DNA of 63,433 bases, counting the filler, from Nemertoderma westbladi (Eukaryota > Animalia > Xenacoelomorpha): NCBI GenBank assembly GCA_032718475.1. It is 3 parts of 3 records of this genome, joined end to end, with 100 filler letters (N's around TTAATTAATTAA, not from the genome) between each part and the next. Parts side by side here need not be neighbours in the genome. Positions count along the whole stretch, not along the records: positions 1 to 26,381 come from JAUCBJ010002214.1; 2 more parts are not named here. One strand, 5' to 3'. How positions within the stretch are numbered: the stretch's first letter is position 1; the number at the start of each line of letters is the position of its first letter. Positions 1 through 42,587 of the stretch are shown piece after piece. The notes below the pieces were generated by a model, which saw only the letters and a program-made list of their open reading frames with translations, had not been told where the DNA came from and searched no databases. The position numbers were made by a program, and so were the translations under genes.

Positions 1-1212
1 CTTTTTAGATGTTTGGCATCTTTCCAGTAATTTTTTATTTCGCACCCTGATATTGTTCGACTTCTTTTTGTGCTGTTTCTTGGGTATATATTCATAGGCA
101 GTATCATAAAATATTGCTTTCAGCGAATGACCGTACCAATCTATGTCCCTCTTTGTCCACTTTCGATCAAAACAGGAAACAATGTCCTTTAGCCTATTCA
201 ACTTGTGCTCGGTTTCTTGCATATACTTAGATAGCTTTTCCTTACTGCACTTTTCCCACGCAAAACGATGTATCCTTTGTACATTTTTTGTTGAAATTTT
301 TTCTTTTTCTTCACGTTTTACTTCTAGTTTAAAACAAACGAGGACTGGGACATGATCAGAATTATTGTGAACCTCATCCATACCAAAAACGAAGCCTTGA
401 TGAATACTATTTGCTCCAGACCTAGATGTCACTATGTGATCGATGTATGATTTGTTGCGTCCATGAAAAGTTACAGTTGGACCTTGAAAAGCTGAGAATG
501 TGTCCACTGCATGAATACCTTGTTGCATTAAAAACTCATGAAATATTTTTCCCCTAGCTGATGCATGTTCTCGACTAAAACGCAGTCCCTGCAGAGGCCC
601 AACATCAGCGTTGAAGTCGCCAATTAGTATCGGGAGACTATTTGGGTACGACTTTAGGATGTTTGTCAGGCGACCTAAGAAGTCATAAAATTCACTAACT
701 GGTTTACCAGCATCCGGAGCATATACATTCAGCACTAACAAATCCAAGTTACCCAAAGTAGCCTTGATACCTATGATGTCATTGCTAGATTCGAGCGGCA
801 TAGTGTAGTCAAATAGGTTTTTCCTAATGAGCAAGCCGACTCCCCCACGAACTACTGCACAATGTTTAGTTTGATGGCCAGGAATATATAGGCATTCATA
901 ATTATTTTTAAAGCTTTCACACCAAATTTTTTCACATTCCGTCCCATCCAACCATAGTTCTTGTATTCCACAAATATCTACATTATGTTCATCCAACAAT
1001 TTATCGACGTACATCATATTGCTAAGTGCTCCCCTTACATTAAAAGTCAGGCAGTTCAAATTAGTTTTGGTAACTACAGCAGAATTATTTTCTTTAAAAT
1101 TGGTGCATTTTGCATCCAAGCCGGAGCCATTAGAATTGAGCGCTGTAGCACCATCCTGAGCACCAGATCCATCTTTATTGTTAAACACGAATCCTCTTTC
1201 TTCTCCCTTCAG
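1..1212 (-). CDS. LINE ORF2, N-terminal part (APE endonuclease and start of linker); runs off the window
   Basis: Hand translation is stop-free from 1212 to 1 and shows APE motifs in order: CLTFNVRG, DICGIQELW, RGGVGLL, NVYAP, IGDFNAD, SYIDHI, NSDHVPV. Missing from the ORF track because no stop lies in the window. RT domain not visible, so clade not assigned. Confidence 0.92.
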   Translation of the reverse strand, partial: MKGEERGFVFNNKDGSGAQDGATALNSNGSGLDAKCTNFKENNSAVVTKTNLNCLTFNVRGALSNMMYVDKLLDEHNVDICGIQELWLDGTECEKIWCESFKNNYECLYIPGHQTKHCAVVRGGVGLLIRKNLFDYTMPLESSNDIIGIKATLGNLDLLVLNVYAPDAGKPVSEFYDFLGRLTNILKSYPNSLPILIGDFNADVGPLQGLRFSREHASARGKIFHEFLMQQGIHAVDTFSAFQGPTVTFHGRNKSYIDHIVTSRSGANSIHQGFVFGMDEVHNNSDHVPVLVCFKLEVKREEKEKISTKNVQRIHRFAWEKCSKEKLSKYMQETEHKLNRLKDIVSCFDRKWTKRDIDWYGHSLKAIFYDTAYEYIPKKQHKKKSNNIRVRNKKLLERCQTSKK

Positions 1213-4200
1213 TTACCCTATAATGATATTGCTTGGGGCTGAAATCTCTTTCTACTGGATAAAGGCAGTTATCCAATTCTACATACTCTGACAAGTCTCT
1301 CTCTTTAAAGTCCAATGGAGTATTATAAGCAGTTGCGCGTTCTTCCCATCTAACACAAGTGATACCATCTGGCCAGAAAGATGGCTCCAAAAGATCTTGT
1401 TTACAGTTTCTCTCCATAATGAGCTTCATGTTTTTAATTCCATCAAAGATTCTTGTGGTTATACGGTGAATACGTGCCCCGCGATGTTCTACATAGGCGA
1501 CAATGTCTTCCTCTGTATGTTTGCAGTTGATACCATTTACAAAAAACACCTGTGATTCAAGTTGTTTTCTGCCATTATTTGAATTCCCCTTTTCTCTATG
1601 TGAGTCGTTTTCTTTTCTCTTAACATCATGTTTATCCATATCCCTACATGAAAAGTTGGTCTTTAAGTCTTTGTTCTTTGTTTCCATTTTATTATTCACT
1701 GTGACATTAATTGTGTTCAAATGTTGTTGTTTTGGAAGAGAGCTGGATTTTGTATTTGTAACACTTTCGGTACTTTCAGTCTGTTTTATCTCTGGAAAAG
1801 TGTACCTGTTAGAGACTGGTATCTGAAATGCGTGACTTCCGTTTTGATTAATGAAGTTAACGCGTTTCCTTGTGCAATTCTTTGACTTGACTATGGTATA
1901 TTCCGGTTCTTTCTTCCCAAAGGTATCAAGAACCTCATTATCTGTATCACCTATGGAATCAATCACTATGAAACAGTCATCTTGGGATCCCTTGATTGAT
2001 GCTTGACATACATTCTGAGCAATAGTTACACTTGTAATTGGTTTTTCTTTCATAGGCTGTGTCTGATTGTTATCTTTAGTACTCTCAACTTGTTGTTCAG
2101 CATTCCCTTTGATCAATTTTGTTAATGTTTCCATCTGATACTGAAGGACGTTTCTCAGCCGTCTTTCATGCTCTAATTCTTCACGTAGAAAACCCACTTC
2201 TTGCTTTAATGATGTTATATGAGTCTCTGTCTGGCTGAGTCTACCTTGGAGTACGGCAGAGGAATTTATACATTCCTGATGGACATCCTCCAGAGTTGTG
2301 GACCCATCACTGTTGAGCTCCTTCCTTTTAAGCCGGCGCTTGCAGCATTCTGTGAAATTGTTTGATTCTTTGCATTTGTAGATCTCATAAATGTCAGTGA
2401 CCAGCTCCTTTAGTGCCGCCCTGGATCGTAGCTGCAATGTGACAGAGTTTGTTGGGGACATTAAAGATTTTATGTCAGTAAAAAATTGACTTCTCAAAAC
2501 ATTACATTCTTCAGTTGTGTACGTTTTCATCATCTGTTTAATCGCAAATTGTCGCGGTTGTTGCATGATCTGATGAAAAATTGATCCATCCGAAGTATTA
2601 ATATGATTATTTTTCTGCTTATATCCAGGGTCTTCAGTGGAGTCAAAGGAACTTGTTTCCTGGTTTCCCAATGAATTTTGTAGTCGCTTAGTAGAAACCG
2701 AATCCATACTTAGACAGAAATTCTCCTTATTTTTATCGAAAGTATTTTGATATCTTTTTTCTCCTCGTTGTATCTGAGAAAAACTAAAGATACCTGCAGA
2801 TTCAATTAGTTTGCATTCTGTCAGGCATTCAAGAATCCACTTGCGTGCTTTCGCACTATCAAACACCACATCTGGGAGAACAACAGTATTTAAACCGCAG
2901 GCTAGAGCATAGTAGCACACAAAAACTCCACAATCAATACTGTTTCTTTGTTTCGCGAATTTCCTTGTCGAGACAGCTGAAAACCAAATTTTTTTGTGTC
3001 TTTCTTCCGTTTCAGGAGACAGTTCATCAATTAATGCCAACAGTTTGCAGATTTCCTCAGTAGTGGCTGTAGGTACATTTATATTTAGTGAATCAATACA
3101 TTCAACTTGCCTGGTCAGGGTATCAGCTATATGAAGTATAAAATGATTGCTCTGACATTCCGGGAAGAAAATATATCTTGGTTGAAGACCATCAGTATTA
3201 AATTTTCCATAATAAGCCTTTGCAATATACTTCACAGCACTTAAATTATCGTAGACTCGTGTCCCTTCAACCCAGTCCAAAGATTGTAATTTAGTTGTAA
3301 GACAGCAGCTAACGTAGGAAGTGTGAGGAATGTTTCGTTCAACTAAACTTAGAAACCCCTCAAGTATGGAGTCAGTTAGCCAATCTCGGGTGTTAAGGAG
3401 ATTTAAATCTGCAACTGATTGAAGAACAAGTCCCCTAGTACCAGGCTTAGCATCAGAACAACATTGCAAATAATCCTTAATTGCCTTTGAGTTGTCATGT
3501 CGAAAATTTGATTGACTACAGGGATAGACTTCTACGTGACAGGCTTGATTGAAATTCTTTGATTCCTCTACCAAGGCAGTTTCATGTTTCTCTTGATTTC
3601 CGGGACACTTACCAGCATAATGCGATGGCTGAAATGGAGCCACACCTGGGTCTAGTTGGTGTTGGTTTGATTTGTTTGCGCTCAAATTGGAAATCTCATA
3701 CGAAATCTGATCCAGTGAACCAGAGACCAGCTCCCCATCCGGCTCCACCACAGCCCGATCCAATCCCAGATTTGTCGACCCAGAAGGTGAACCCTCGACC
3801 GGAGGAGAAGGAGGGTTGGATCCCGGAGATGGCGACCCGGAAGGTGAACTCTCAACTGGAGGAGATGGAGAAGGAGGGTTGGATCCCGGAGACGGCGACC
3901 CGGAAGGTGAACCCTCGACTGGAGGGGAAGCAGGGTTGGATCGCGGAGATGGCGACCCGGAAACGGAACCCTCGACTGGAGGAGAATGAGGGTTGGATCC
4001 CGGAGACGGCGACCCGGAAGGTGAACCCTCAACTGGAGGAGAAGGAGGGTTGGATCCCGGAGATGGCGACCCGGAAGGTGAACCCTCGACTGGAGGAGAA
4101 GGAGGGTTGAATCCCGGAGATGGCGACCCGGAAGGTGAACCCTCGACTGGAGGAGATGGAGAGGGAGGGTTGGATCCCGGAGATGGCGACCCGGAAGCTG

Positions 4201-4768
4201 AACCCTCGACTGGAGGAGAAGGAGAATTGGATCCCGGAGATGGCGACCCGGAAGGTGAGCCCTCGACCGGAGGAGAAGGAGGGTTGGATCCCGGAGATGG
4301 CGACCCGGAAGCTGAACCCTCGACTGGAGGAGGAGGGTTGGATACCGGAGTCGGCGACCCGCAAGGTACCGGTATCTTCCTTAAACTCCAAGATCCGTCG
4401 TCTGCCAGATCCTCTATCTTATAGGGGTCAGCGGAGTGATCCTTCTTTACAGTTAACTGGGGAACACTTTCTGTGTTCTTGGGATCTCCGGGTTTACCCA
4501 ATACTGGTAGTCCTACCGTGTGGTTGTACACAGCCGATTTCCTCCTAAGGCCATCTGGTACCGTAACCGGTTGGCCTACCGATAACGATTGTCTCCGCTT
4601 TAAATCCGCCGATTTACTTGAGGTAACAGAGCTGTTTGCTTTTTTACCGGAGTTAGAGCAGAGGCCGCGTTTATTTGGCGCACAGTTTGTACATTTCCTT
4701 TGGTCGTTAACGCAGCTGCATTTATTGCAACGTCCCCTTGTAGCGGAACAGACGCAGCAAGGTGCCAT
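1181..4768 (-). CDS. LINE ORF1, 1195 aa: Cys-rich N-terminus, Pro/Ser repeat, Ulp1/C48 protease domain, coiled coil, RRM-like C-terminus
   Basis: N-terminal CCxC..C..C.C...C..C...C cluster. C48 motifs WLTDSIL, NHFIL, DSL, QRNSIDCGVFVC. Heptad region THITSLKQEVGFLREEL. C-terminal VFFVNGI...FWPDGITCVRW typical of LINE ORF1 ends. Lies directly upstream of the APE ORF2. Confidence 0.85.
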   Translation of the reverse strand: MAPCCVCSATRGRCNKCSCVNDQRKCTNCAPNKRGLCSNSGKKANSSVTSSKSADLKRRQSLSVGQPVTVPDGLRRKSAVYNHTVGLPVLGKPGDPKNTESVPQLTVKKDHSADPYKIEDLADDGSWSLRKIPVPCGSPTPVSNPPPPVEGSASGSPSPGSNPPSPPVEGSPSGSPSPGSNSPSPPVEGSASGSPSPGSNPPSPSPPVEGSPSGSPSPGFNPPSPPVEGSPSGSPSPGSNPPSPPVEGSPSGSPSPGSNPHSPPVEGSVSGSPSPRSNPASPPVEGSPSGSPSPGSNPPSPSPPVESSPSGSPSPGSNPPSPPVEGSPSGSTNLGLDRAVVEPDGELVSGSLDQISYEISNLSANKSNQHQLDPGVAPFQPSHYAGKCPGNQEKHETALVEESKNFNQACHVEVYPCSQSNFRHDNSKAIKDYLQCCSDAKPGTRGLVLQSVADLNLLNTRDWLTDSILEGFLSLVERNIPHTSYVSCCLTTKLQSLDWVEGTRVYDNLSAVKYIAKAYYGKFNTDGLQPRYIFFPECQSNHFILHIADTLTRQVECIDSLNINVPTATTEEICKLLALIDELSPETEERHKKIWFSAVSTRKFAKQRNSIDCGVFVCYYALACGLNTVVLPDVVFDSAKARKWILECLTECKLIESAGIFSFSQIQRGEKRYQNTFDKNKENFCLSMDSVSTKRLQNSLGNQETSSFDSTEDPGYKQKNNHINTSDGSIFHQIMQQPRQFAIKQMMKTYTTEECNVLRSQFFTDIKSLMSPTNSVTLQLRSRAALKELVTDIYEIYKCKESNNFTECCKRRLKRKELNSDGSTTLEDVHQECINSSAVLQGRLSQTETHITSLKQEVGFLREELEHERRLRNVLQYQMETLTKLIKGNAEQQVESTKDNNQTQPMKEKPITSVTIAQNVCQASIKGSQDDCFIVIDSIGDTDNEVLDTFGKKEPEYTIVKSKNCTRKRVNFINQNGSHAFQIPVSNRYTFPEIKQTESTESVTNTKSSSLPKQQHLNTINVTVNNKMETKNKDLKTNFSCRDMDKHDVKRKENDSHREKGNSNNGRKQLESQVFFVNGINCKHTEEDIVAYVEHRGARIHRITTRIFDGIKNMKLIMERNCKQDLLEPSFWPDGITCVRWEERATAYNTPLDFKERDLSEYVELDNCLYPVERDFSPKQYHYRVTEGRRKRIRV
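3780..4345 (-). repeat. Coding minisatellite, about 10 copies of a 57-bp unit (some 54/63 bp) encoding PPSPPVEGSPSGSPSPGSN
   Basis: Repeats of ggatcccggagatggcgacccggaaggtgaaccctcgactggagg; all length variants keep the ORF1 frame. Confidence 0.95.
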
Positions 4769-4866
4769 AATAATCTCACGATATTGATAGGTTATAATAT
4801 TTCAGCAGTATTAGTACAGCAGTATTAGTACATGTGGTGTACCGTCTACCGTATACTACTACGAGT

Positions 4867-5912
4867 ACTATATATAAAGTACACATTATATATAAAGTAC
4901 ACTTTATATATAAAGTACACATTATATATAAAGTACACATTATATATAAAGTACACATTATATATAAAGTACAAATTATATATAAAGTACACATTATATA
5001 TAAAGTACACATTATATATAAAGTACACATTATATATAAGGTACACTTTATATATAAAGTACACTTTATATATAAAGTACACATTATATATAAAGTACAA
5101 ATTATATATAAAGTACACATTATATATAAAGTACACTTTATATATAAAGTACACTTTATATATAAAGTACACTTTATATATAAAGTACACATTATATATA
5201 AAGTACACTTTATATATAAAGTACACATTATATATAAAGTACACTTTATATATAAAGTACAAATTATATATAAAGTACACATTATATATAAAGTACACTT
5301 TATATATAAAGTACACATTATATATAAAGTACACTTTATATATAAAGTACACATTATATATAAAGTACACTTTATATATAAAGTACACTTTATATATAAA
5401 GTACACATTATATATAAAGTACACATTATATATAAAGTACAAATTATATATAAAGTACACATTATATATAAAGTACAAATTATATATAAAGTACACATTA
5501 TATATAAGGTACACTTTATATATAAAGTACACTTTATATATAAGGTACACTTTATATATAAAGTACACTTTATATATAAAGTACACATTATATATAAAGT
5601 ACACATTATATATAAAGTACAAATTATATATAAAGTACACATTATATATAAAGTACACATTATATATAAAGTACACATTATATATAAGGTACACTTTATA
5701 TATAAAGTACACTTTATATATAAAGTACACATTATATATAAAGTACAAATTATATATAAAGTACACATTATATATAAAGTACACTTTATATATAAAGTAC
5801 ACATTATATATAAAGTACACTTTATATATAAAGTACACATTATATATAAAGTACACTTTATATATAAAGTACACATTATATATAAAGTACACTTTATATA
5901 TAAAGTACACAT
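4867..5912 (+). repeat. 18-bp minisatellite (tatatataaagtacacat), about 58 copies with variants
   Basis: Directly visible tandem array with acacat/acactt/acaaat variants. Confidence 0.97.
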
Positions 5913-6630
5913 TAGATTAGATTATCGCGCAAACGCGCGCAGCACCAGTCTAGCTGGCATTTATTCAAACAGTAAAAACTTAAAAATCATCAAAACATTA
6001 AAACCGCATTGAAAGTGAAGGTTAAAATGTACAGTAATAAAATGGTAGGTAAGTTACCGTTAAATGGGGTTACACAGCACGGCATTCTAAATGCACCCAA
6101 AACCAAAAAGCATCACGTCTTTTCCCTACCCTAATTGTGAAATGACATTAAAACCACAAATATCAGGATATATAATAGACCTCGTGTACTAAAATCCTGC
6201 TAGGTTTAAAATTAAACAAATGAAACAAGCAAAATCAAACATAACACGATCAAAATCGAGAAATCTGCACTGGGTACTGGGTAGACTCCTACTAGATTTA
6301 CATTTAGAAACCCGAGAAATCTGCACTGGGTACTGGGTGGGTAGTCTCCTACCGCTAAAATGCACGACATACTGTATAGAACCCAAGATCGCGAAAATAC
6401 AGAGGGTAAATCTCCTTAGATCTAGAAACTGCACAAAGTACAGGGTGATCTACTTGGTTTACATAACAAAATAGGCTACTAAGTGCACGACATAATGCAA
6501 CTTAAAATGGAAAATTAACAGGCTATCATATCTCATAATTCAAATATTCTGAAATATTCTTTTATGTGCTTATGCTTTGAACGAAAAGATACACCTGGTA
6601 TTGAAAAAGTGTTTGAAATAAAATTAGCTG

Positions 6631-7050
6631 ACTTTATATATAATGTGTACTTTATATATAATGTGTACTTTATATATAATGTGTACTTTATATATAATGT
6701 GTACTTTATATATAATGTGTACTTTATATATAATGTGTACTTTATATATAATGTGTACTTTATATATAATGTGTACTTTATATATAATGTGTACTTTATA
6801 TATAATGTGTACTTTATATATAATGTGTACTTTATATATAATGTGTACTTTATATATAATGTGTACTTTATATATAATGTGTACTTTATATATAATGTGT
6901 ACTTTATATATAATGTGTACTTTATATATAATGTGTACTTTATATATAATGTGTACTTTATATATAATGTGTACTTTATATATAATGTGTACCTTATATA
7001 TAATGTGTACTATATATATAATGTGTACCTTATATATAATGTGTACTATA
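6631..7050 (-). repeat. Inverted copy of the same 18-bp minisatellite, about 23 nearly identical copies
   Basis: atgtgtactttatatata is the reverse complement of the 4867-5912 unit. Confidence 0.97.
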
Positions 7051-7350
7051 ATGTATAATTTAAAGTTTTTTTTTACAAGGATTATATTAGAATCGCATTT
7101 TTGTAGCTTACTGTAGTTTTACGAACGCTAAGACTTAGCGAAGTCCTTTTGTTTGCTCAGCATTATAGCCTACTGTAGCTGTTTTCATATAAATTATTTA
7201 GAATTCATTCTGAAATAAAACTCCACTGTTATAATTAACAAAACAATTTATTAGAAACATTTTAAATTACGAGACATACCAGTATGCAACTTTAACTTCC
7301 AGCAGATATGTGGAACATTCAATCAAAATCAAATACTAACAATTCGGTGA

Positions 7351-8312
7351 ACGGACAATTCCGACCCGGACAATTCCGACTCGGACGATTCCGACCCGGA
7401 CAATTCCGACCCGGACTATTTTGACCCGGAAAATTCCGACCCGGACAATTCTGACCGGGCAAATTCCGACCCGGACAATTCCGACCCGGACTATTCCGAC
7501 CTGGACAATTCCGACCGGGCAAATTCCGACCAGGACAATTCCGACCCGGACAATTTCGACCCGGACAATTCCGACCCGGACAATTCCGACCCGGACGATT
7601 CCGACCCGGACAATTCCGACTGGGCAAATTCCGACCCGGACGGACAATTCCAACCCGGACAATTTCGACCCGGACAATTTCGACCTGGACAATTCCGACC
7701 AGGAAAATTTCGACCCGGATAATTTCGACCCGGACAATTCCAAACCGGACAGTTCCGACCCGGACAATTCCGACCCGGACAATTCCGGTCTGGACAATTC
7801 CGACCCGGACAATTCCGACCCAGACAATTCCGACACGGACAATTCCGACCGGGCAAATTCCGACATGGACAATTCCAACCCGGACAATTTCGACCCGGAT
7901 AATTTCGACCCGGACAATTCCAAACCGGACAGTTCCGACCCGGACAATTCCGACCGGGCAAATTCCGACCCGGACAATTCCGACCCGGAAAATTCCGACC
8001 CAGACAATTCCGACACGGACAATTCCGACCTTGACAATTCCGACCTGGACAATTCCGACCTTGACAATTCCGACCTGGACAATTCCGACCTTGACGATTC
8101 CGACACGGACAATTCCAACAAGGACAATTGCGACCCGGACATTCCGAGCCGGACAATTGCGACCCAGACAATTCCGACCCGGACAATTGCGACCTGACAA
8201 TTCCGACCCGGACAATTCCGACCCCGACAATTGCGACCCGGACAATTCCGACCTGGACAATTCCGACCCGGACAATTCTGACCCGGACAATTGCGACCCG
8301 GACAATTACGAC
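7351..8312. repeat. 15-bp GC-rich tandem repeat (cccggacaattccga), about 64 copies
   Basis: Directly visible; unit has partial dyad symmetry (tccg/cgga, gga/tcc). Confidence 0.95.
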
Positions 8313-9003
8313 CCTATTGACTTTTGTTATTGTTTTGGTTACATACTTTCCAATAATTCATAATTTTACACATTGAGACAAAATATTAACTCATCGAGGT
8401 TGGATGTGCGTCAAGTTTCGCACACATTCACCTCCATATACAGACAGTTATAACTTTTTCTAATGAATATTTCACGTTTTGCGTTACTGGACTCGGTTAT
8501 TTTACGTACGATTTTGGTGAATTATTTCATAATTTTTTGTTTCTATTTCTGTTAGTCAGAGTGAATTGTTATTTTTATGTGACAAGATAAATATGATATT
8601 AAATTATTTTATTGTAAACGTTTTTAACACCGTTGATTTTAATATTATATAATAATAAATATTAATAATATATTTTAATATAATATAACTATTATAAATG
8701 GTGATAAATAATTTAATTTTTAAAATTAATTAAATTACAGTGCAGGGCCAAACGATCCGGTTACACGTTGAATTTAGATAAATCTTTATTATTTCGAATT
8801 ATTATAATTATATATTTATTTTATATATAATTAATTATTAAAATTTGATTAATTATTTAGGTACATCCACCTAGGGTTATAATGTATCAACATATTCGGT
8901 TAGATATTGAATAATTACATTGTTCTTATATTTATTATTATTTTATTATAATAAAATGGATATCTTTGAAAGCAATAAATATTTTAATAATATTATTTTA
9001 AAT

Positions 9004-10520
9004 ACCACCACGTTCTAGAACATTTGTGTATGTATGAATATCCACGTACTATTACCACCACGTTCTAGAACATTTGTGTATGTATGAATATCCACGTTCT
9101 AGAACATTTGTGTATGTATGAATATCCACGTTCTAGAACATTTGTGTATGTATGAATATCCACGTTCTATAACATTTGTGTATATATGAATATCCACGTT
9201 CTAGAACATTTGTGTATGTATGAATATCCACGTTCTAGAACATTTGTGTATGTATGAATATCCACGTACTATTACCACCACGTTCTAGAACATTTGTGTA
9301 TGTATGAATATCCACGTACTATTACCACCACGTTCTAGAACATTTGTGTATGTATGAATATCCCACGTTCTAGAACATTTGTGTATGTATGAATATCCAC
9401 GTTCTATAACATATGTGTATATATGAATATCCACGTACTATTACTACCACGTTCTAGAACATTTGTGTATGTATGAATATCCACGTACTATTACCACCAC
9501 GTTCTAGAACATTTGTGTATGTATGAATATCCACGTACTATTACCACCACGTTCTAGAACATTTGTGTATGTATGAATATCCCACGTTCTAAAACATTTG
9601 TGTATGTATGAATATCCACGTTCTAGAACATTTGTGTATGTATGAATATCCACGTTCTATAACATTTGTGTATGTATGAATATCCATGTTCTAGAACATT
9701 TGTGTATGTATGAATATCCACGTACTATTACCACCACGTTCTAGAACATTTGTGTATGTATGAATATCCACGTACTATTACCACCACGTTCTAGAACATT
9801 TGTGTATGTATGAATATCCACGTTCTAGAACATTTGTGTATGTATGAATATCCACGTTCTATAACATATGTGTATATATGAATATCCACGTACTATTACC
9901 ACCACGTTCTAGAACATTTGTGTATGTATGAATATCCACGTACTATTACCACCACGTTCTAGAACATTTGTGTAAGTATGAATATCCACGTACTATTACC
10001 ACCACGTTCTAGAACATTTGTGTATGTATGAATATCCACGTTCTAGAACATTTGTGTATGTATGAATATCCACGTTCTAGAACATTTGTGTATGTATGAA
10101 TATCCACGTTCTATAACATTTGTGTATGTATGAATATCCACGTACTATTACCACCACGTTCTAGAACATTTGTGTATGTATGAATATCCACGTACTATTA
10201 CCACCACGTTCTAGAACATTTGTGTATGTATGAATATCCACGTACTATTACCACCACGTTCTAGAACATTTGTGTATGTATGAATACCCACGTTCTAGAA
10301 CATTTGTGTATGTATGAATATCCACGTACTATTACCACCACGTTCTAGAACATTTGTGTATGTATGAATATCCACGTTCTATAACATTTGTGTATGTATG
10401 AATATCCACGTTCTAGAACATTTGTGTATATATGAATATCCACGTTCTAGAACATTTGTGTATGTATGAATATCCACGTTCTAGAACATTTGTGTATGTA
10501 TGAATATCCACGTACTATTA
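9004..10520. repeat. Minisatellite of 34-bp units (ccacgttctagaacatttgtgtatgtatgaatat) with an optional 16-bp insert (ccacgtactattacca)
   Basis: Directly visible; 34- and 50-bp periods are mixed irregularly; each unit has the palindrome gttctagaac. Confidence 0.95.
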
Positions 10521-10559
10521 TTATGAAAAGGATAGATATATCACAGATCCGTATTGAAT

Positions 10560-11100
10560 TTAGAAAAGCGACCCAATTATATCAAACCATGACCTACTAC
10601 TATAGATAAGTTAGAAAAATTTCCTTAATAAAATATCATTTCCTCATTATATTGAAGTCGTAATATGCGGGATTATCCTGTTGGGAGCCTCCAAAACCAG
10701 GCAGATTAGTAAAGGAACAGGGTAAAGAGACGAGTTGAAAGCAACCAAAACAATAAACGTGAGTTAGGAATGTTGTAGAAGAGAAAACCAAATTTAAAAC
10801 CAAATTTAATTAAGAATCACCAGTCACAATTATAGACCTTCCGGAACTCTGAAAAGGCTGGAGGCCCCCAAGAGGATAGAGCCTAACATTCATTTATCTC
10901 CGCATATCTATTTTATGTATTAATAACATTTGTCTTTAAATCTAATAACCGAACGCTGTTAAGGTGGTCAATTGTCTTACTTGAGATCCACCAAAAGGGG
11001 ATTCAGATAGGAGTCCCGATGGTTTAGGCAGGATAATAACCGTAGCGTGATGGTTCTTAAAGAATAACCGGCCACCCCAACCCCAAGTCCAGCAGTAGCT
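10560..11100 (-). pseudogene. Possible highly decayed LINE endonuclease fragment
   Basis: Only weak remnants on the minus strand (SIIVTGDS resembling the GDFN motif near 10815-10840). Confidence 0.25.
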
Positions 11101-12329
11101 TCATCTCTACATCAGATAAAGAACTACTTTTACTCCCCTTGATGACTTTGGATGGACGATGAACGGACGGTATATTCTTTTTACTGGCGGTCTACGAAGA
11201 GTTTGCGAGACAATCTGCACTCTGAAGTCGGAACAGATTCCGGTTGAATCGTTTAACAGCATCTTTTGATGAAGATGGCCGCGGTTGGATACTGAATGTA
11301 TCGCCCGTCAAAATTTACAAATGTTTGTGGAAGCGGGAGCCCCTGGTGTCATCTGTTCTGTAGAAAAACCCTGACTAGTCGAACTAAGTGCCACTGTAGA
11401 CCAAGCGGAATCCACAGCACTTTCCAACCATAACTGCTAACTGCGCATAATATGCACATAATATGCGCAGTTAGCATAATATCTGTATATTATACAGATA
11501 CTATGTCAGTATGTCCAGACTAATAGAATGCCTAACGTACCAGTAGGCAGTGCAGTGAGCAGGGCACATACGGAATCACTGTATTACTGGACCAGTACTG
11601 TAGTACAGAAGTAGAAAGAATGGACATGTTGCGTCTAATCTTGCTTTCGATTACTAATAATGAATTCAACAAACCAAAAAAGCATAGTATGGTTTAATGG
11701 TTATACATCTTTGAAGGTGATGTTTTTTGAGTAAATTTATCAATCCCAATAGGTCTTGATATGATATGTGTGCAAAGAATTCCTCATATCTCGAAAACTA
11801 CTGGAGCTATTAAATTTTTATTTGTCTTATCTGAAAGAGGAGATAATTTTAGTTAGAGTCAAGTACTTTCGACGCGCTTGAGCTATTGTTTCTGGGATTC
11901 TATCTATGATAAATAACTGGCCCACCAAATTTAAGAGCTTTTCATTTCAGCAGCATGGTAGGTCGTATTTATATCTATATTGCATAGCGGTATTGTATCG
12001 TTTCACAGCTACGAGTTTATGGTCGTCACCTTCTGATTGTGCAACCTTATACTGTAATAGCTTCTATTGTAGGTAGCGAACCGGTAATGATCAGCCAGGG
12101 AATGGTAGGCCTGCGACAAGGCAGAGTACAAAAAATAACTAATGTAATATAGCTGGTTCTGGTAGTGCAGATGATTTAAGTACGTATCTGGGTGTTAAAT
12201 CTCAAGGAAACCCTTGGGTAGATGAAATGGATCCCTCACCAGTTATACTGTAAATACCTGCTTGTCACTATCGGTGCAAGCTTTTGCGACATGCACTCTT
12301 GAGAATGCATGCAATGTATGTCTACGCAG

Positions 12330-12420
12330 TTCAATTCAATTTATTTTTATTTCCATAGATTGCATAATGATTGACGTGGGCCCCATAGCATAGCTAGTGT
12401 AGGGCACCACGTCAATCAGC
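12330..12420 (-). mobile_element. Probable 3' end of a LINE/SINE: stem-loop followed by an AATAAA-(TTGAA)n tail
   Basis: tgattgacgtgg ... ccacgtcaatca inverted repeat next to ttcaattcaatttatt. Confidence 0.4.
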
Positions 12421-12559
12421 ATAATGAATGCACTACGTAAGATACAATACACATTAATTAATTAATGAATACGCCTACCGTAGATACTGCCTCAACAATG
12501 CGCATCCAGCAAGACTAATGATTAAAAGACTAATGAGACTAATGACGCAGATTCACACA

Positions 12560-13675
12560 GGATGAGGTTTTGGTGGCAAAGTCAATGCTGTTCAGTAGAT
12601 GTGGTACCGAGATAGTTAACCAGCGTGACACCGCATATATATCTGCAAATGAGGTGAATTTCAAGAACTTATGGGAGAAACTTAAAGAACTTGATATAAA
12701 CGGTAAACTACCGTGCGTAGCAGTTATGGCTTTAGAGGCCCTATCGCTTCCGTGCCTACAATCGGGAACTGCTTCTGGCGTTGACTAAGATCCAGACTAA
12801 GATGGACATGGTGGATGAAAAATTGATAAACCAATAAACTAAACTTTATAATTAATAAACTCGAGCGGTTGTTTGCAGACAGTTTGAATTCAATGCAAGC
12901 ACATTTTTCTGAACTGTTACTTTGTCTAAAGGATGTTGTTGTACAAATTAGTCCGAATTCCTCATCCCTCAGTTCTACTGCAATCGGTACTAACATGGAT
13001 ACTGATACGGGGAGTGGGTTGCATACCGATATTGGTATGATTATGTCCAGTGAGCAATCCGTCATGCATAATGATGGCAGTTCATCTGCAGATCACATAT
13101 ATGGTGATTTCCCTGATTTGTGTCTTCTTCCACCAGCAACATTGCGGACGCCAGCATGGGAGCGCTCTACTCCAAGAGAAACTGGTAGGCCCTGTAGGCC
13201 TTTATCATTCACAAGACCAGAAAGATAACCACATCTTCGCAATTTGCCGCTAGGGGCAGTGCTAAGAGGCCGAGACACCCGCTACCAGCTGTTCTGGATA
13301 AGAAGGATCAGTTTGGTAGTTCTGGTTTTCAGAGGGTGGAATAAAACCGAGGAGGCGTCCATGCGATTTCATAATTGGGACAAAACAAAGTCCAGTCGGG
13401 GATAATGGAGCTAAGAATACAGGGTTACGGCCGACAGGCGGCACCAGAAGACGTATTCGCCTTTAGACTTTGGCCTACTATAACAGCACAGGTTTTAGTT
13501 GACTGCCTTGCGGTAGGTGTGTGGATTCCTTTATCTTTATTGTGAAAAGAATCTTCCCCCAGGACACAACAAGAGCGAGTTTCAGAGTATCAATGAGTTT
13601 TAAAAGCTTGGAATTAGCATTGTCACCATCCACATGGCCTTCTGGTATATGCGTCCGTAAATGGGTGCAGTATAG
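12560..13675 (+). pseudogene. Decayed ORF1 of a Proto2/Daphne-like LINE
   Basis: AKSMLF...KELDINGKLP N-terminal block and RASFRVS...TWPSGICVRKW C-terminal block, broken by stops and frameshifts. Confidence 0.7.
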
Positions 13676-13679
13676 TTAC

Positions 13680-14100
13680 AGGCCACCTTCTGGGTCATTT
13701 CAGTGGTCCATCACATCGCGGGCCGAAGGACAATTTGACTCCACAGGTAGAAAAAATTTATTGACAGTCTTTAGTTATCACGTATATATTATATATACCG
13801 GTACTAATAATAAATCAGGCCCTAATATATACCGTTATGTGGCGATTTCTTTGATTAGGGGATCTCCAGACGTTAGACTTGAAGGCTGGCCCCAATATAT
13901 ACCCTTGACCTGAGAAGTTATTATCCCTTTCCATTCGAAAATTGCGGTAGAGTTCTAATGTGGCTGGGTTGATAATATTGGGATACTGCTCATGTAAAGG
14001 TTTGGACGTTGTCTTTGTCATGATGAAAATAATATAGTTTTGGTTCTGGTTTTTAATGTCTAACTTTCTACTTATTATTACGGTCTCCAAATATAACTTT
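13680..14100 (-). pseudogene. Decayed RTE-like RT C-terminal fragment
   Basis: Frameshifted remnants AFKSNVWRS and FF..VES..L.G..WT, resembling the RTE C-terminus at 16714-16830. Confidence 0.4.
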
Positions 14101-14165
14101 ACCGGTAATTAAATCTATTCTATGCAAATATTGCGGTAACAGCGCCGAGGACCTTTACCATGTTC

Positions 14166-14271
14166 TAGAATGCTCGAGCTCACCAGAACTGTCATCTCTA
14201 GCGGCACAATAATAGTCTACAATAAAGATAAAGGCCTTAAGAATTGTAAATATAATAAGTCAATAATTTTT
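14166..14271 (+). repeat. Left copy of 106-bp target-site duplication of the RTE
   Basis: Identical by eye to 17196-17301 (tagaatgctcgagctc...caataattttt). Confidence 0.9.
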
Positions 14272-17195
14272 GACCTCAGGTCAGTTCAGTTCCCCAGATC
14301 CTGCTACCACTATGGCAGTAATGTGGTACTACCTGTAGCTGTCAGCCCAGTAGGGCAGGCCCGATAAGCATAGCCTATTCATTATTTTGTTGATCAAGAG
14401 TGGGTTGGTTCAGCCCCGTCAACTAAATAAGTCATTGAGGGCTATAGCGCCTAGGGCACCATTGAAGGCAAAGGCTTGATACGCATCTGCATTAGAGATG
14501 ATACAAGCCCCGCCCTGTCTATACTGGATGCTCCTCTACCAGTGTTAGGTAACCTAACCCAGGAGGCACACTTGGTTCAAGGTGTAACAAATGGACCCCT
14601 ACAGTCGGCAGCAGGGCTGTAGGCCATGGATAGGCGGAAGGTAATCAACCAACGGCTAGACATGCTGACAAGGTCGGCGGAAGGTAATCAACCAACGGCG
14701 ACCTACTGCGAAGACGCTTGTAGGAGTTGCGACCACAAGCAGTTTACTCCCGCAACTGGAGAACCCTCCAGGAGAAATACCGGCTCGGTCGTCACCCGGG
14801 TCAACAAGGACCGCGTCCCTCAGTGGTACACCAGGCTGGGGTCGATAAATTGGCTACTGGAACAGAAGACAGCGAAGAAAGAAGAACCAACCTGTTAAAA
14901 TGTAAAAAGACACTAAAGATTGCTACAATGAACGCACGCACGCTGAAAGCACAGAGCAAACAGGGTGACATAGTCGCTCTGGCAATGGAATATAACATCG
15001 ACATCATCTGTATCCAAGAACATCGGATTTGTCATGAAGACACTGCCATGAAGTACAATGACATTGGAAATGGATGGACGTTAGTAACAAGCTCAGCAGT
15101 AAGAAACTCGGCCAATGCATCAATTGGTGGAGTAGGAATTCTGCTAAGCCCATTTGCACTTAAGACCCTAAACCATATCGAATCTATAAATTCCAGGGTT
15201 ATGATTGCAACATTTGATGGGAATCCCAAGACAACAGTTATATGTTGCTACAGTCCAACCAATGCATCAGAGCCAGAACAAGCAGTCAAGTTTTATGAAG
15301 AACTGACTGGACTTATTAAGGAAATCCCGAAACACAATGTTAAAGTCAATGCTGGTGAACTGAATGCGCAAATTGGCCCAGAAGACATCAAGGGTTACAA
15401 TTATAACACCAGTTCTAACAGAAATGGGTACTTACTTTTAGACCTAATGGAAGAATGTGAATTGATACCAACAAACAACACATTCGAAAAGAGTAAGGGG
15501 AAGCTATGGACCTTTAATACCCTAATGGAACCAAAGCGCAACTGGATTACATCCTTATAAACAAAAAGTGGAGAAATAGCATGATCAACTGCGAGGCATA
15601 CAGCTCGTTCAACCTAATTGGTTCGGATCACAGAATTGTGACTGCAGAGATCAGACTCAGTTTGAGAGCCAGCAAACCCAGGACTAGCAATCAAATCAAC
15701 TATGACTGGGAGAAACTCAGAACTGACAATGCTGTAAAGGCTGCTTATACAGTAGAAGTTCAAAACCGCTTTGAAGCACTTCAGTCAATGGATGAAGACC
15801 AATCCACCGATTCAATATACCAGAATATAATAACAGCCCACAAGGAATTAGCTAAGAGGCATATCCCCCAGAAACCTAAACGAAAACAGTATGTGCCATG
15901 GCAAAACTCTGAGGTTACTTGTAAGAGAGAAGATCTTAAGATAGCCTACAAAGTTAAAACCGAACAACCAACAACCGAAAACATTAACAAGGTTGAGAAA
16001 GCTAAGGACGATCTTAAATTGGCCTACAACATCAGCCAGGAAAAGTACATACAGGATAAAACTGAAGCAATTACAACTGCTCACATACAGCAACAATCAA
16101 GACTTACCTGGCAAACTGTAAATGAGGTATCTGGTCGGAAAAGTTGTGCAAAGGGGCGTCTCAAAGCCGATAGTCCTGAAGAACGTGTTGGGAAGTGGAA
16201 AAATCACTTCAGCAACTTGCTTGGGCAGCCACCAAACATCGAGGTCAGCCCTACAAGGAAAATATATGACAAGACACTACCTATAGAAACAGGGGACTTC
16301 ACACCTGCCGAACTCCAAAGAAGCATTAAAAGCATGTCCAATAATAAAGCGAGTGGATTAGAAAAAATCCCAGCGGAGGTATGGAAAACCGGAGTGCTAA
16401 ATAGACCATTATTGAATGTTTGCAACCGGATGTTAAAAGGGAAAAAGCCACCACCAATTTGGTCTAAGGGTCAACTAAAGCCTCTCCCCAAGAAAGGAGA
16501 CCTCGGCATACCAACAAACTATCGTGGGATCTGTCTGCTTGTGGTAGCTGCCAAAATATACAATAAAATGATTCTATATAGGATTAGGCCTCACATAGAG
16601 AAACTACTGCGTAAGAGCCAAAACGGATTTCGACCAAGTAGATCAACAATAGCTCAGATACTTGCACTATGGAGACTGATTGAAGGAATTAAGTCAAAGA
16701 ATCTCCATCAAAAATGGATACCATCTGGAAATCAGATCTCTCCAGGCACCTGAAGACTAAGTTCTTTCGAGCCACAGTGGAAAGTGTATTTTTATACGGG
16801 GGTGAGACCTGGACACTGACTAAATCACTTGAACAACGAATTGATGGTTGCTACACAAGACTACTAAGGGCAGCCCTAAACATCAGCTGTAGACAACAAT
16901 GACAAACGCCGAGCTTTATGGTACAATAGCACCTGTATCAACCACCCTCCGTGAACGCAGATTAAGATTCAGTGGGCACTGCTGGCGAAGTAAAGACGAG
17001 GTCATACCAGATCTACTTCTCTGGCAACCAACTCATGGAAAGCGTAGTCGTGGACGACCTGCCATAACATATATAGATCAACTTGAAAGGGATACTGAAC
17101 TTGGGAGAAACGAAATTGCGACAACTATGGAGAATAGGGAAGCCTGGAAGGATCTCATTTCCACTGTCCGAGTTCGCTCGACCTAGTAGTAGTAG
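14272..17195 (+). mobile_element. RTE-clade LINE, apparently 5'-complete, internally deleted, (TAG)n tail
   Basis: APE motifs ATMNART, CIQEHR, GGVG, YSPT, LDYIL, SDHR. RT start PLPKKGDL..NYRGI..QNGFR. C-terminal LYGGETWT and RRLRFSGHCWR. Frameshifts near 15515 and 16900. Flanked by a 106-bp direct repeat. Confidence 0.93.
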
Positions 17196-17301
17196 TAGAA
17201 TGCTCGAGCTCACCAGAACTGTCATCTCTAGCGGCACAATAATAGTCTACAATAAAGATAAAGGCCTTAAGAATTGTAAATATAATAAGTCAATAATTTT
17301 T
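17196..17301 (+). repeat. Right copy of 106-bp target-site duplication of the RTE
   Basis: Begins within the (TAG)n tail; identical by eye to 14166-14271. Confidence 0.9.
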
Positions 17302-17624
17302 TAACAGATATTTATATCAATGTATAATATAAATTGTTTTATTTTATTGAGTATCTTATGTAATTATTTGAATGAATCAAAATAAAGGTCTCAATTTGCC
17401 CCGCGTGGGGGCGCAGTTTAAAAAAAAAATATATATATACCGTTAAACTCAAATGGAGAATTATCAATCATCTGTCATTGTATGTTCCGTTGAGGTGAGG
17501 TATGGTTTGGAGGTGAGGTCAGGTGAGGACCTTCGAATACGTAAGGGAAAGGCATGGGCAGCCTAGAATAGGCTTTCCAGGATTTGGAAGTCACAGAGAA
17601 TTAATCGGAAAATTAAGGTCCGAT

Positions 17625-18109
17625 TATTTAGAGCAGGCAGTAGTTCCAGTACTCCTCTATGGGAGTCCATGCTGGGCTCTAACGGCTGAGGACACCAAAT
17701 CTCTGGATGGCACGTTCACAAGAATGCTACGCCGGGTTCATTGTGTCAAGTAAATGCACACATCTCCAACCAGACACTATATAACATTGAAGGTGTCTCA
17801 TTGGGTGTTCTGTTCCCCCAAGCTTTACACTAGAACAAAATCGCCTCCGCTTTGCAGGACATTGCTTTCGCTGTAAGGACCAGCCAGCGCATAATCTTGT
17901 ACTTTGGCAGCCTCATGGAGTGAATAAGCATGGTGGACAGCACATGACTTTCTTGAAACGCATCTTAAAGGACACTGGCCTTGAAGATGCGGATGATCTA
18001 GCAAATGTCATGGGTGATAGGGAGTTGTGGTGGCGCAATTTGTCGACAAGCCGGCACAGCTTTCTTAAAAATGCAGCTGCAATGCAGCATGCCGATCCTA
18101 GTAGTAGTA
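17625..18109 (+). mobile_element. 5'-truncated RTE 3' fragment (different family) with (TAG)n tail
   Basis: VLLYGSPCWAL, LDGTFTRMLR, RLRFAGHCFR, ends tagtagtag. Confidence 0.85.
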
Positions 18110-18825
18110 CTGTATGTTCATATAATTCCACGGATTTTGGTATTGATAAAGTTGAATTCATGAGAACATTGTTGTTAAGAGTTGATATTTTATGTATTCA
18201 AGAACATTTCATTTTGAAGGATAACTGTCACAAATTTAACAAATTATTCACAGAATATGATTTTAATGCTGTGCCTGCCACTTATTTGAACGTGGAAGTG
18301 TGTTGCGGTAAGCGGTGGGCTTGCTATATTCTGGAAGAAATCTATTTCTAAGTATATTTCAGACTTTATCTGACACATTTTTTACTTTGCTTAATTGTAT
18401 TAAAGATACTGTAAACAATTCTCAGTTATATAACATAATATGGACTGGTGATTAGAACGCTGATCTGATTTGTAATTATTTGCATGTACAGACCATTACG
18501 GTATAATATTGAATCACTATCCCTATTTTGTGCTTGGAATGTATTTCCAATCGATTATACTTATTATCATATGTTTAATAATGTGATTCAGCGATCCACA
18601 TTAGATCATTTTATAATCAGCCATAACATACTAAATGTATGTTATGAAGCTGATGTATTTCATTCAGGTGCAAATATGTCTAGTCAATCATAGCCCGGTT
18701 TACATAAATTTAAAGAGGATTTACTGATTACAGATGTTTTAACGGAACCTCCGCTGTCACTGCACAATATAAATATGCCATTCGCAGATTAAAACGAGGC
18801 CATGATAAAATAAAACGTGAACCGA
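18110..18825 (+). pseudogene. Decayed ORF2 (APE part) of the Proto2-like LINE
   Basis: TVCSYNST, DILCIQEHF, STLDHFII motifs with frameshifts. Confidence 0.75.
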
Positions 18826-20086
18826 GTTCTAAAAGCTTGGTGGGATAAATATTTCTCCATTTGACGCAACACCGCCGCGGCCGCTATGAGGGAGGTGAAT
18901 ACTGCGGCCGCTCCTAAAGCCGCAGGCCATCGCTAACTATATAGGTTAACTTGGGATTCTGGGGGACTTTTCGATGAAGGAACTGACCAAATTTTTTTAT
19001 TTTCTCACCAGGGGAGCGGCTCGGAATTCTAAGATATTAGCAACTCTAACATTATTAAATCTAACCCTTCGACGGACAAGGCGGACAAAAAACCGTCATT
19101 TTTTCGACAATTTTAAAATTTTTTTGAAAGGCGCTCTACAGTGGCTCGAAAAAACCCTAGGTTATTGCTTAGCCGACGCCGGGATACAATAGAAGGGATT
19201 AATTAGTGAATTCGTTTTTTTTTTCAAAAAAGATTACCACGCCTTTTTTCCGAAAATGTCCGTCAAAGTTGAAAAAACGGACAAAATGACTTTGCGGGAT
19301 CCGCTATAACTCGGCTAATATTAATCGTACGGGGACGAAAGTAACGCGGTTGGAAAGGGGATGAGTGGTACTACCTTCGTATCGAATGGGGGTAAGATAT
19401 TTATTAAAATTTCGGGTGGAAAAAGGGGCTGTAAATTTGTACGTTTTTGTCCGTCTTTTTTGGAAAACTTATTTCCGAAAAGTTTAATTCGACAACGCGG
19501 GTAGGAATCCACTAATTATTTTATGAAACTCGTAGAAGACCATTGGGGCTACGTTCCTATCGAATGGGGGTACAACAAATATGTCGGCAATAGGGGCCAA
19601 AAAGGGCCAGAATTTGTAAAGTAGTTTTTATCGAATAATTTTTTATTTTTAACTTTAGTTGGTTAAGGTACATTCTATACAGTCCATATCCATACGGGGA
19701 ATTCAAATATGCTATCGGTTTTGCTCCAAGGATGATATTAAAAAAATGAGGGCCAAAATTATAATTTCGCGCTTCAAACTTGCTTCGCGGGAAATCGTCT
19801 AGCTCGAAAACTACTTAACTTACGGGAGATTTGTTTACACAGACTTATAGTGCGTTAAATTATCTATCTAACAGCGTTAATCACAGCGCCGGAGGTATTA
19901 TAAAACTGGAGCGGCAGGTGATCGTGTGAAATATAATATTTATAAAAAGGGACGAAAAATTTTTTTTTTAACATATCGCTATTCCATTATAGTTTAGCGT
20001 ATTGCGCCAAAAGTACCTGTAAAAAGTATCAAATTAACTCCGCTATCTTTTATCTTAACATATATAATTAAAATTACGAATTTTAA

Positions 20087-24570: not shown

Positions 24571-25074
24571 AAGCAACTTATAATATTAAACCAATTACTT
24601 ATTATTTATATTATTCTATTATTAAATTTTAATGTATAGATACAGCGTATTAAATATTACTAGAACACGTTATAGCTGCTGTGTATATTATTATATTATA
24701 AATTCACCTATACACTCCCTAAAGCTCTTAGTTGTACACGACAATCTGTTCAATATTTTCTAAATTCATAATATTAATAAATATTAGGTAATAATTATAG
24801 AAACTAAAAGACAACTGAGTTTGGAATATCAACATATATATTCATTTGTAAAAGGATGACGCAAGATTGAGTCACGTGATCTATCAATTAGACTACAATG
24901 TAGTTGAACTAGTTGGCAAACGTTTAGCCCTAACTACAATTATTACTTGGTTGGTTTGTTACCATGTCTAACTGCAAACTATTTCTTTTATTTTTAGCTC
25001 AAAATTTGGAATGAATGTGATATAATTAATTATTTAAATAACTTTAGCAACATTTTTCGCAATATAAATGCAAG

Positions 25075-25862
25075 CAACAAAGGCAATATTAATGTGGTAT
25101 ACAGCAACACAAGCAATATTAATGTGGTATACAGCAACACAGGCAATATTAATGTGGTACACAGCAACACAGGCAATATTAATGTGGTACACAGCAACAC
25201 AGAAATATTAATGTGGTACACAGCAAAACAGGCAATATTAATGTGGTATACAGCAACACAGGCAATATTAATGTGGTACACAGCAACACAGGCAATATTA
25301 ATGTGGTACACAGTAAAACAGGCAATATTAATGTGGTATACAGCAACACAGGCAATATTAATGTGGTACACAGCAACACAGGCAATATTAATGTGGTACA
25401 CAGCAACACAGGCAATATTAATGTGGTACACAGCAACACAGGCAATATTAATGTGGTACACAGCAACACTGGTAATATTAATGTGGTACACAGCAAAACA
25501 GGCAATATTAATGCGGTTCACAGCGACACAGGCAATATTAATGTGGTACACAGCGACACAGGCAATATTAATGTGGTACACAGCAAAACAGGCAATATTA
25601 ATGTGGTATACAGCAACACAGGCAATATTAATGTGGTACACAGCAACACAGGCAATATTAATGTGGTACACAGCAAAACAGGCAATATTAATGTGGTATA
25701 CAGCAACACAGGCAATATTAATGTGGTACACAGCAACACAGGCAATATTAATGTGGTACACAGTAAAACAGGCAATATTAATGTGGTATACAGCAACACA
25801 GGCAATATTAATGTGGTACACAGCGACACAGGCAATATTAATGTGGTACACAGCAAAACAGG
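25075..25862. repeat. 30-bp minisatellite (acacaggcaatattaatgtggtacacagca), about 26 copies
   Basis: Directly visible. Confidence 0.97.
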
Positions 25863-37466: not shown

Positions 37467-37769
37467 GGCGACGCTTGTTTTTTTTAAGTTTTCCATACCA
37501 GCTTTATTCCGTTTTCCCTTACAATGATCAGATTCCAGAACATACGGTCGGGTATAGTGTACCTATATAAATATGGAAGCTGCAACGCTTCCTACTGCAC
37601 ATCGCGTGTAGTGTACCTGTGGCTGTGGAAGCTGCAATGCTTCCTACATCGCACGTACAGTACGGTACCTAGCCATACGTGTGAGGAACATACGGGGTTC
37701 AAGTTACAACACCAGTAAATTTCCCTTCCAAAACTAATTCGCAATCATCCCAGCCAATTTATCATCCGA

Positions 37770-41556: not shown

Positions 41557-41676
41557 GGCTCGCCCCACACGGTGCAGTTGTTGCATTTATGTTACGCAAC
41601 TCTGTTGAGATAGATAGACAAGCTTATATAACATGTAGATAAAAAGCAAATTGACCAGTAACGTGTGAGGCGGGCC
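41557..41676. mobile_element. Small PIF/Harbinger-like MITE
   Basis: 15-bp imperfect TIR ggctcgccccacacg / cgtgtgaggcgggcc, flanked by tga and taa. Confidence 0.5.
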
Positions 41677-42587
41677 TAACTCTATAATAAAAAGTAATAA
41701 ACCCGAAACCTGTGACAGATTACCTAATAATAGAGGAAAAAACTGTAATAAATAAATAAAGTTGTTTCAGAGAAGCAGCTGGGCTGGGCATTTCTGGGAA
41801 ATATTAGCGATTTCAGTTTCACAAAATTAGCGATTTCAGTTTCACAAAATTCAGACTCAAAATCTCCCATATGAAAATAATTTATTCCAACTCACTGCCT
41901 AAATTCTATTGCACAATATTATGTCTTTCAACATAATTTCTTCACTTATTTAACAACTTGTTCCTGTGCGTTTATAAATGCAAAATTACAATATTTTATA
42001 TTATTGAGTTGAGACATTGTTGACCAACAATTCTTAAAAGAAAATGATAACAAACTACCGGTATAAATGTACGGTATTCGTTAGATTAAAATCAATACTC
42101 AAAGGGAAAAACATAAGCAGCCTTCATACGAAACCCACGGGTGTTGTAAACGCCAGCCCAATGTTGGAGACTGGCGTGGGAATGGTGTACCGAATAACGA
42201 ACACCGGGGAATACTCCACAGGTCTAGAGGAACTGCGAAAACAATCGGAAATACTCGTTAGAAAATTGAGAAATCGATTTTCAATTTGTTAGTTTATCCG
42301 ATGAGACTTTATTATCTGTGTCAGTTTGATTGACTTTGTTTTGTAACTTTTTGCCATTAACACCATGCGAACTAACTAGAACATCTTCCACTTCTCTACA
42401 CATCGTAATTGGGGTTAAATCGTACAAACAACTTTACCTGCAGTAAATAATGCTGAAACGAAACTTAAAAATAAATAAATTACAAGTTTCGCTTCATTTA
42501 GTAATAAACTGTTTTTATTTATAATTCATTTCACATTTTTCTGTGGAAATATAACAAACTATTTCGCTACAACTGAGGGCGTTTATT

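Follow-up and report, generated by a model that had tools for sequence, protein, structure and literature searches.

A C48 (Ulp1/SENP-like) protease domain within the ORF1 of a two-ORF APE-type LINE from Nemertoderma westbladi

A two-ORF LINE of the AP endonuclease (APE) type from Nemertoderma westbladi carries a predicted C48 (Ulp1/SENP-like) protease domain within its separate ORF1. Capture of C48 domains by transposons is known; a position inside a separate LINE ORF1 was not found described. The element lies at the start of the analysed DNA (the window), a stretch of 63,433 nt, filler included, which consists of three parts of three records from assembly GCA_032718475.1. All positions refer to the window, and the features of the element are listed in Table 1.

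Table 1. Features of the LINE and their positions in the window.
Feature	Position	Strand	Remarks
ORF1	1181..4768	minus	1195 aa, uninterrupted, stop included; ATG at 4768
N-terminal nine-Cys cluster, aa 4-37	4658..4759	minus	
57-bp tandem repeat, 10.2 copies, in frame	3776..4367	minus	Pro/Ser/Gly linker, aa ~135-331
C48 (Ulp1/SENP-like) protease domain, predicted, aa ~449-654	2807..3424	minus	
C48 active-site codons (by alignment)	W463 3382-3380; H542 3145-3143; D559 3094-3092; Q607 2950-2948; C613 2932-2930	minus	
Possible helical domain, aa 737-807	2348..2560	minus	resembles the N-terminal domain of protease-less relatives, same position
Predicted coiled coil, aa ~830-890	2099..2281	minus	hydrophobic 11/18 a/d positions, best register
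Hydrophobic-acidic motif FIVIDSIG, aa 933-940	1949..1972	minus	
RRM-like domain ending FWPxGIxCxxW, aa 1075-1141	1346..1546	minus	ORF1 marker of the related LINE group
Basic ORF1 C-terminus RRKRIRV	1184..1204	minus	
ORF2 start with AP endonuclease	1..1212	minus	Pfam match aa 55-290; stops at the window edge ahead of any RT
Non-repetitive sequence 5' of the ATG, ~100 nt	4769..4868	minus	followed by an 18-bp minisatellite (4869-5914)

The long uninterrupted frame described in an earlier note on this DNA was confirmed, and contigs from four public sequencing runs are free of indels relative to the ORF1 region over positions 1-3740. The motifs quoted in that note were all found in place: WLTDSIL at aa 463 (3382-3362), NHFIL at aa 541, IDSL at aa 558, QRNSIDCG at aa 607 (2950-2927) and the C-terminal WPDGITCVRW at aa 1132. 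From the N-terminus, ORF1 is composed of the Cys cluster, the Pro/Ser repeat, the C48 domain, the possible helical domain, the coiled coil (predicted downstream of the protease, as had been claimed), a linker with the hydrophobic-acidic motif, the RRM-like domain and the basic tail. The Cys cluster matched neither Pfam nor PDB, and only Atlas returned a score (0.80); we take its spacing to be reminiscent of CXC zinc domains, an assumption backed by no search. The likeness of aa 737-807 to the relatives is not significant (HHalign E 0.053, probability 1%; profile score no better than shuffles). The coiled-coil region has a weak Pfam leucine-zipper match (E 0.011). The motif FIVIDSIG, presumably SIM-like by its pattern, has a counterpart in one relative (L004), where the distance to the ORF1 end motif is 204 aa as compared to 198 aa here; this similarity score was reached by 1 of 2000 shuffles, and the motif type was absent from nine other stretches scanned. 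The tail RRKRIRV is likewise presumed to be NLS-like by its pattern.

ORF2 follows directly, as had been noted; it is in the +1 frame and shares 32 nt with ORF1. Its start matches two AP endonuclease families in Pfam (PF03372, E 1.7e-10; PF14529, E 1.8e-9), and its first Met (aa 66) is located downstream of the first APE motif (aa 58). Contigs from the public runs extend 1.9-2.7 kb farther than the ORF2 edge in the window. By its predicted coding content, the element is thus classified as a two-ORF APE-type LINE. There were no Rfam matches within window positions 1-20000. Just upstream of ORF1, one 18-bp minisatellite forms two inverted arrays (4869-5914 and 6631-7059; 93-96% complementary), which are ~700 nt apart and possibly represent a foldback-type element.

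Assignment of aa ~449-654 to family C48 is based on several searches. Pfam Peptidase_C48 scored 24.1 bits with the whole ORF and 28.7 bits with the domain alone (match aa 529-621), above its curated cut-off of 20.7 bits. The best PDB sequence match is yeast Ulp1 (1euv, E 4.6e-6), followed by SENP5 (5e-4) and SENP1 (0.017), with SENP2 also ranked; NEDP1/SENP8 was not among the 14 PDB sequence matches at E up to 1. Atlas features scored 0.96 for C48, which was found in 28 of 30 matches. In the alignment to Ulp1, W463, H542, D559, Q607 and C613 fall on active-site residues, in the triad order His-Asp-Cys plus the oxyanion Gln, and the His, Gln and Cys are invariant across the 17 rows of the C48 alignment. 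Two candidates had been offered for the catalytic Asp (IAD and DSL). The Ulp1 alignment places D559 (IDSL) on the active-site Asp, so that D559 is considered catalytic and the IAD residue was rejected.

A structural model was built from an alignment with 16 C48 homologues, so that its ranking leans towards C48; the pLDDT is 80.8 with the homologues but only 35.7 for a single-sequence model. Foldseek placed SENP5 (E 2.8e-9), SENP3 and Ulp1 on top. VIA-align to SENP5 gave Z 21.6 (rmsd 2.5, 183 residues aligned), and Z was 19.0 for Ulp1, 16.8 for NEDP1 and 12-13 for viral processing proteases. The sequence-only searches (PDB, Atlas) concur with this ranking. Sequence and predicted structure thus support a C48 domain with the Ulp1/SENP fold. 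Its core is 18-37% identical to the best matches among 1.84 billion representatives, and 10 of the 14 branches remained open in a tree of 17 C48 domains; because this tree does not resolve, no donor can be named.

The earlier note had proposed a deSUMOylase or deNEDDylase; SUMO is favoured as the tag of the putative protease by sequence and model, and NEDD8 less so. W463, D466 and E470 correspond to residues in the WLNDxxxE segment of Ulp1. In Ulp1, this segment presumably contacts SUMO, and we take the N, FF and W positions to be SUMO-facing as well. These putative SUMO-facing segments have diverged (NSFFY to VSCCL, WLND to WLTD, HW to HF). SUMO is therefore the likeliest tag yet uncertain, since WLxDxxxE is kept but NSFFY and HW are altered.

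That the frame is indeed a LINE ORF1 is supported by its C-terminal domain. Residues aa 1075-1141 matched four proteins (HMMER, 1.84 billion representatives) and four real metagenome loci; two further loci of the six obtained (L005, L006) were dropped as chance matches of 13-15 residues. The same domain closes a frame immediately before an APE in L001, L003 and L004, the last of which encodes both APE and RT. L007 is the same element as L001 and has an intact ORF1 of 1030 codons, devoid of C48, followed by an APE-RT ORF2; its APE is 28% identical to that of the window ORF2 over 309 aa (E 1e-28). This intact animal-type two-ORF LINE (L007, 1-6264) resides within a contig assigned to a bacterial MAG; it is likely host DNA inside the MAG assembly. 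A family profile of the C-terminal domain retrieves hnRNP-type RRMs first (best E 1e-5); Pfam RRM_1 is found in two of six family members, and the window copy has no Pfam match. The window frame is thus a separate ORF1 with a predicted coiled coil and an RRM-like domain, the RRM label resting on the family profile.

Ten relatives share the C-terminal domain, and five of them are long enough upstream for C48 to be judged (L001/L007, L002, P0021, P0023 and a relic within the window). C48 is absent from all five. The other five (L003, L004, P0006, P0016, P0022) are outside this count, their upstream part being too short. A lineage-specific gain of the protease, as had been suggested, is supported by these comparisons. 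The suggestion had been based on the relic at 12560-13675. This shares the WPxG end but has another type of N-terminal domain (P0021-like) and is broken; because of these two differences, it can serve only as a distant comparator.

A second family with the C48-ORF1 fusion was not found in these protein and metagenome searches. HMMER against the 1.84 billion representatives returned 20 matches (best E 2.8e-6), 16 with C48 only, four with the C-terminal domain only and none with both. Three further searches count as weak evidence: a word-based search with aa 430-1170 (0 of 6834 candidates, covering only proteins of 657-2092 aa), a search of 554-2000 aa proteins with the C-terminal profile (1 of 3753, namely P0023, without C48) and an ORF2 search of 708-2020 aa proteins (0 of 2656). 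Exact look-up of three proteins found none of them, and the viral contigs scanned yielded no usable locus.

The window holds several other repetitive elements. The relic belongs to a decayed ORF1 (12546-13700; P0021-like N-terminal domain, E 7e-5), and a possible APE remnant is found at 18091-18351 (E 0.012), which suggests that later insertions separated the two ORFs of one decayed element. At 14166-17301 is an APE-RT element, presumably RTE-like, with broken frames (14724-15560 and 15518-16753); it ends in TAG repeats, and the perfect direct repeat of 106 nt on its two sides (14166-14271, 17196-17301) represents a very long target-site duplication. Broken transposase-like frames, which we take to be CACTA-like, are present at 46167-49829 (minus strand; weak DUF4218, E 0.025) and are interrupted by a high-depth insert (47574-48423) that contigs from two of the public runs (X1 and X3) skip. 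An RT-bearing frame of another LINE is located at 61989-63260 (minus strand; Pfam RVT_1, E 4e-26). An 8-kb satellite with a 59-bp unit covers 29408-37467, and more satellites are found at 7352-8314, 9003-10517, 25073-25862 and 50487-51741.

DNA of the element is present in four public sequencing runs (X1 to X4) from three studies, with two flagged as possible source of the window; no RNA run is listed among them, and X1 and X3 are one sample. Positions 1-3740 are covered by one contig each in X1 and X3 and by pieces in X2, while X4 covers 325-3740. The contigs show 4, 12, about 3 and 19 differences to the window copy and no indels or joints. The fusion is present in those of X1 to X3 as well. 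The element has a depth of 210, 187 and 332 in X1, X2 and X3, as compared to 24.5, 21.9 and 17.5 for the ARPC1 gene, which corresponds to ratios of 8.6, 8.5 and 19 (5.9-23.6 over all control contigs tried). Three differences separate the window copy from all four runs, a minor variant is present in X2 (60 against 164), and X1 and X3 represent two slightly different forms from one sample. Depth and sequence homogeneity indicate that this is probably a family of young age with several nearly identical copies, very roughly 8-19 per control-gene equivalent, a very rough estimate because contig depth is no copy number. In X1 to X3, the catalytic triad is intact and four of seven ORF1 differences are synonymous, including both differences inside the protease; the three replacements are all in linkers. 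This synonymous excess is weak (P about 0.05 if the neutral share is 0.225).

The control gene itself, ARPC1 (Arp2/3 subunit 1), is encoded without introns at 42588-43694 (minus strand; E 2e-128 to ARPC1A) and is possibly a retrogene; a contig from X4 (41182-43834) covers it at very high depth and is transcript-like.

Run X4 is catalogued as DNA by guess. Its ARPC1 contig has a depth of 1284, 9 of 30 bins are empty in a control stretch, and the element contig has a poly-A-like end ahead of an A-rich stretch; these features point to an RNA library that was primed internally. The X4 variant has three changes within five bases, resulting in H542N and N541I, with ORF1 otherwise open. There is thus a protease-dead form, which may be the one expressed in X4. 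Because X4 looks like RNA and carries H542N, the sole likely transcript among these runs is of this form.

Regarding function, our leading proposal, to which we assign a little less than an even chance, is that the C48 domain acts as a putative SUMO isopeptidase in trans against silencing. Extrapolating from known ORF1 proteins, many ORF1p molecules would multimerise on the element RNA. They would enter the nucleus via the basic C-terminus, with the protease attached to every molecule by a long flexible tether. Acting in trans, the predicted protease would cleave SUMO conjugates behind their Gly-Gly, possibly assisted by the SIM-like motif, and SUMO would be taken off host silencing proteins or off the element's own particle. 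This would weaken the SUMO-dependent repression that acts on the element or on a new insertion. C48 enzymes cleave after Gly-Gly. ORF1 has no Gly-Gly, and the sequenced part of ORF2 has a single one, within a conserved endonuclease motif, so that there is no canonical self-cleavage site; the absence from ORF1 is by itself not significant (0 seen, 1.8 expected outside the repeat). In the fly germline, loss of SUMO derepresses transposons according to the available text of 10.1101/2022.08.15.504007. Knockdown of the host Ulp1 in flies raises R1/R2 expression (accessible part of PMC7676866), and SUMO-protease activity is thus not a plain opponent of silencing. Against the trans-acting proposal stand the H542N variant of X4, the diverged SUMO-facing segments, and the fact that related LINEs do without a C48 domain; the SIM-like motif also occurs in L004, a relative too short upstream for C48 to be judged. 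A more far-reaching version, which we consider doubtful, is that a working deSUMOylase was added independently to the packaging protein of a LINE lineage, between a SUMO-binding motif and a zinc cluster that binds DNA, and that the particles of this lineage deliver many erasers to chromatin, stripping SUMO from the silencing machinery at the element's own loci. If true, the ORF1 of a LINE would encode an enzymatic counter-defence.

Two other explanations are both improbable in our judgement. The predicted protease may target NEDD8 or ubiquitin, or SUMO in DNA repair; it would then shield ORF1p and ORF2p from degradation or direct how the insertion site is repaired, instead of counteracting silencing. 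The divergence of the putative SUMO-facing segments fits this, CE-clan deneddylases and deubiquitinases reach Z 12-17 to the model, and transposon Ulp1 and OTU domains have been proposed to function in DNA repair (PMC2836005, text available in part). However, the sequence search ranks Ulp1, SENP5, SENP1 and SENP2 and lacks NEDP1, and the model scores SENP/Ulp1 2-5 Z units over NEDP1. The other explanation, given the same weight, is a recent passenger: a captured fragment that happens to be in frame and is tolerated or decaying without benefit to the element. The missing second fusion family in the protein and metagenome searches, the five informative relatives without C48 and the lost catalytic His in X4 are consistent with this, and divergence within so young a family cannot reveal selection. 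Yet the core, although far from known donors, has kept all five active-site residues, its base composition equals that of ORF2 (GC 0.39 both), and the differences inside it are synonymous in the three DNA-like runs.

Still less probable is that the protease processes proteins of its own element, excising itself from ORF1p or releasing ORF2p from an ORF1-ORF2 frameshift product, comparable to polyprotein maturation by viral CE-clan proteases. The earlier note had considered self-processing; it is disfavoured by the lack of Gly-Gly in ORF1, which is also devoid of an adenain-type site, and by the position of viral processing proteases far below the SENPs in the model ranking. Cleavage at Ala-Gly is the poxvirus rule. 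ORF1 has just two Ala-Gly sites (aa 385, 658), one on either side of the C48 domain, but their number is at chance level (2.7 expected). This explanation stays alive because ORF2 has no Met before its first APE motif and is in the +1 frame, a layout like that of Paramecium LINEs, where +1 frameshifting or re-initiation is thought to be used (PMC5405496, available portion). Finally, a one-off chimera or an assembly error that fused a LINE with a protease from a DNA transposon or from the host is largely refuted and very improbable: the window has a single copy and X1 to X3 may include its own source, but contigs of three studies span the protease-to-ORF2 junctions without joints or indels, the element depth is several-fold that of the control gene, and the three window-specific differences together with the X2 minor variant are as expected of collapsed copies.

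Among known systems, cellular Ulp1, SENP5 and SENP3 are similar in predicted fold, the W/H/D/Q/C active site and the WLxDxxxE segment; in contrast to these, the window domain is only 21-24% identical, has NSFFY and HW altered, and is intronless within a mobile element. In the literature that could be covered in full text, no description of C48 in the ORF1 of an APE LINE was found; most subscription journals were outside this scope, and a Repbase/Dfam entry may exist. A survey of 448 Jockey-group ORF1s makes no mention of protease, peptidase, Ulp1, SUMO or ubiquitin in its available text (PMC4120745; no motif match in the supplement text), and the accessible text of PMC5753468, PMC10175614, PMC5718144, PMC6431247 and PMC10318531 mentions no protease in a LINE ORF1. 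The ORF1s of CR1, L2 and RTEX LINEs are modular (types I-V), with RRM, CCHC, PHD and esterase modules (available text of PMC4120745 and PMC3905857). The window ORF1 resembles them in its shuffled modules and its core of coiled coil and RRM. Their esterase is a precedent for a catalytic add-on; the esterase ORF1s, however, lack an RRM as far as described in the accessible part of PMC3905857, whereas the window ORF1 has an RRM-like domain beside its enzyme domain. A further likeness in architecture is to the unnamed FWPxG APE-RT LINEs (L001/L007, L002, L003, L004, P0021, P0023), which have the RRM-like C-terminal domain (25-36% identity) before a related APE and a short ORF overlap; unlike the window ORF1, those long enough to judge are without C48.

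Ulp1-like domains have been described in NeSL from nematodes and in Utopia-1_TSP, which are target-specific and whose single protein combines RT and a restriction-like endonuclease (PMC4640811, available text). The window element, in contrast, has the protease in a separate ORF1, together with a coiled coil and an RRM-like domain, before an AP-endonuclease ORF2. With two ORFs and an AP endonuclease, it was not assigned to NeSL/Utopia. Ginger1 and Mutator DNA transposons carry Ulp1, and Helitrons carry OTU (PMC2836005, as far as accessible). The window element is like these in that a transposon protein has acquired a C48 or OTU domain, for which a role in the SUMO/ubiquitin pathway has been proposed; they have it on the transposase or RepHel protein, whereas the window element has it on an RNA-packaging protein. 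The protease of NeSL, Utopia, Ginger1 and Mutator is joined to the replicative enzyme, and self-processing and host manipulation are therefore hard to tell apart. Ulp1-like domains have been captured many times by transposons, and their function is only proposed in the text of the literature covered. The window element extends the recognised repertoire of LINE ORF1 modules by a protease and, with this domain in a separate ORF1 without Gly-Gly and in a family of young and intact appearance, makes its function unusually testable.
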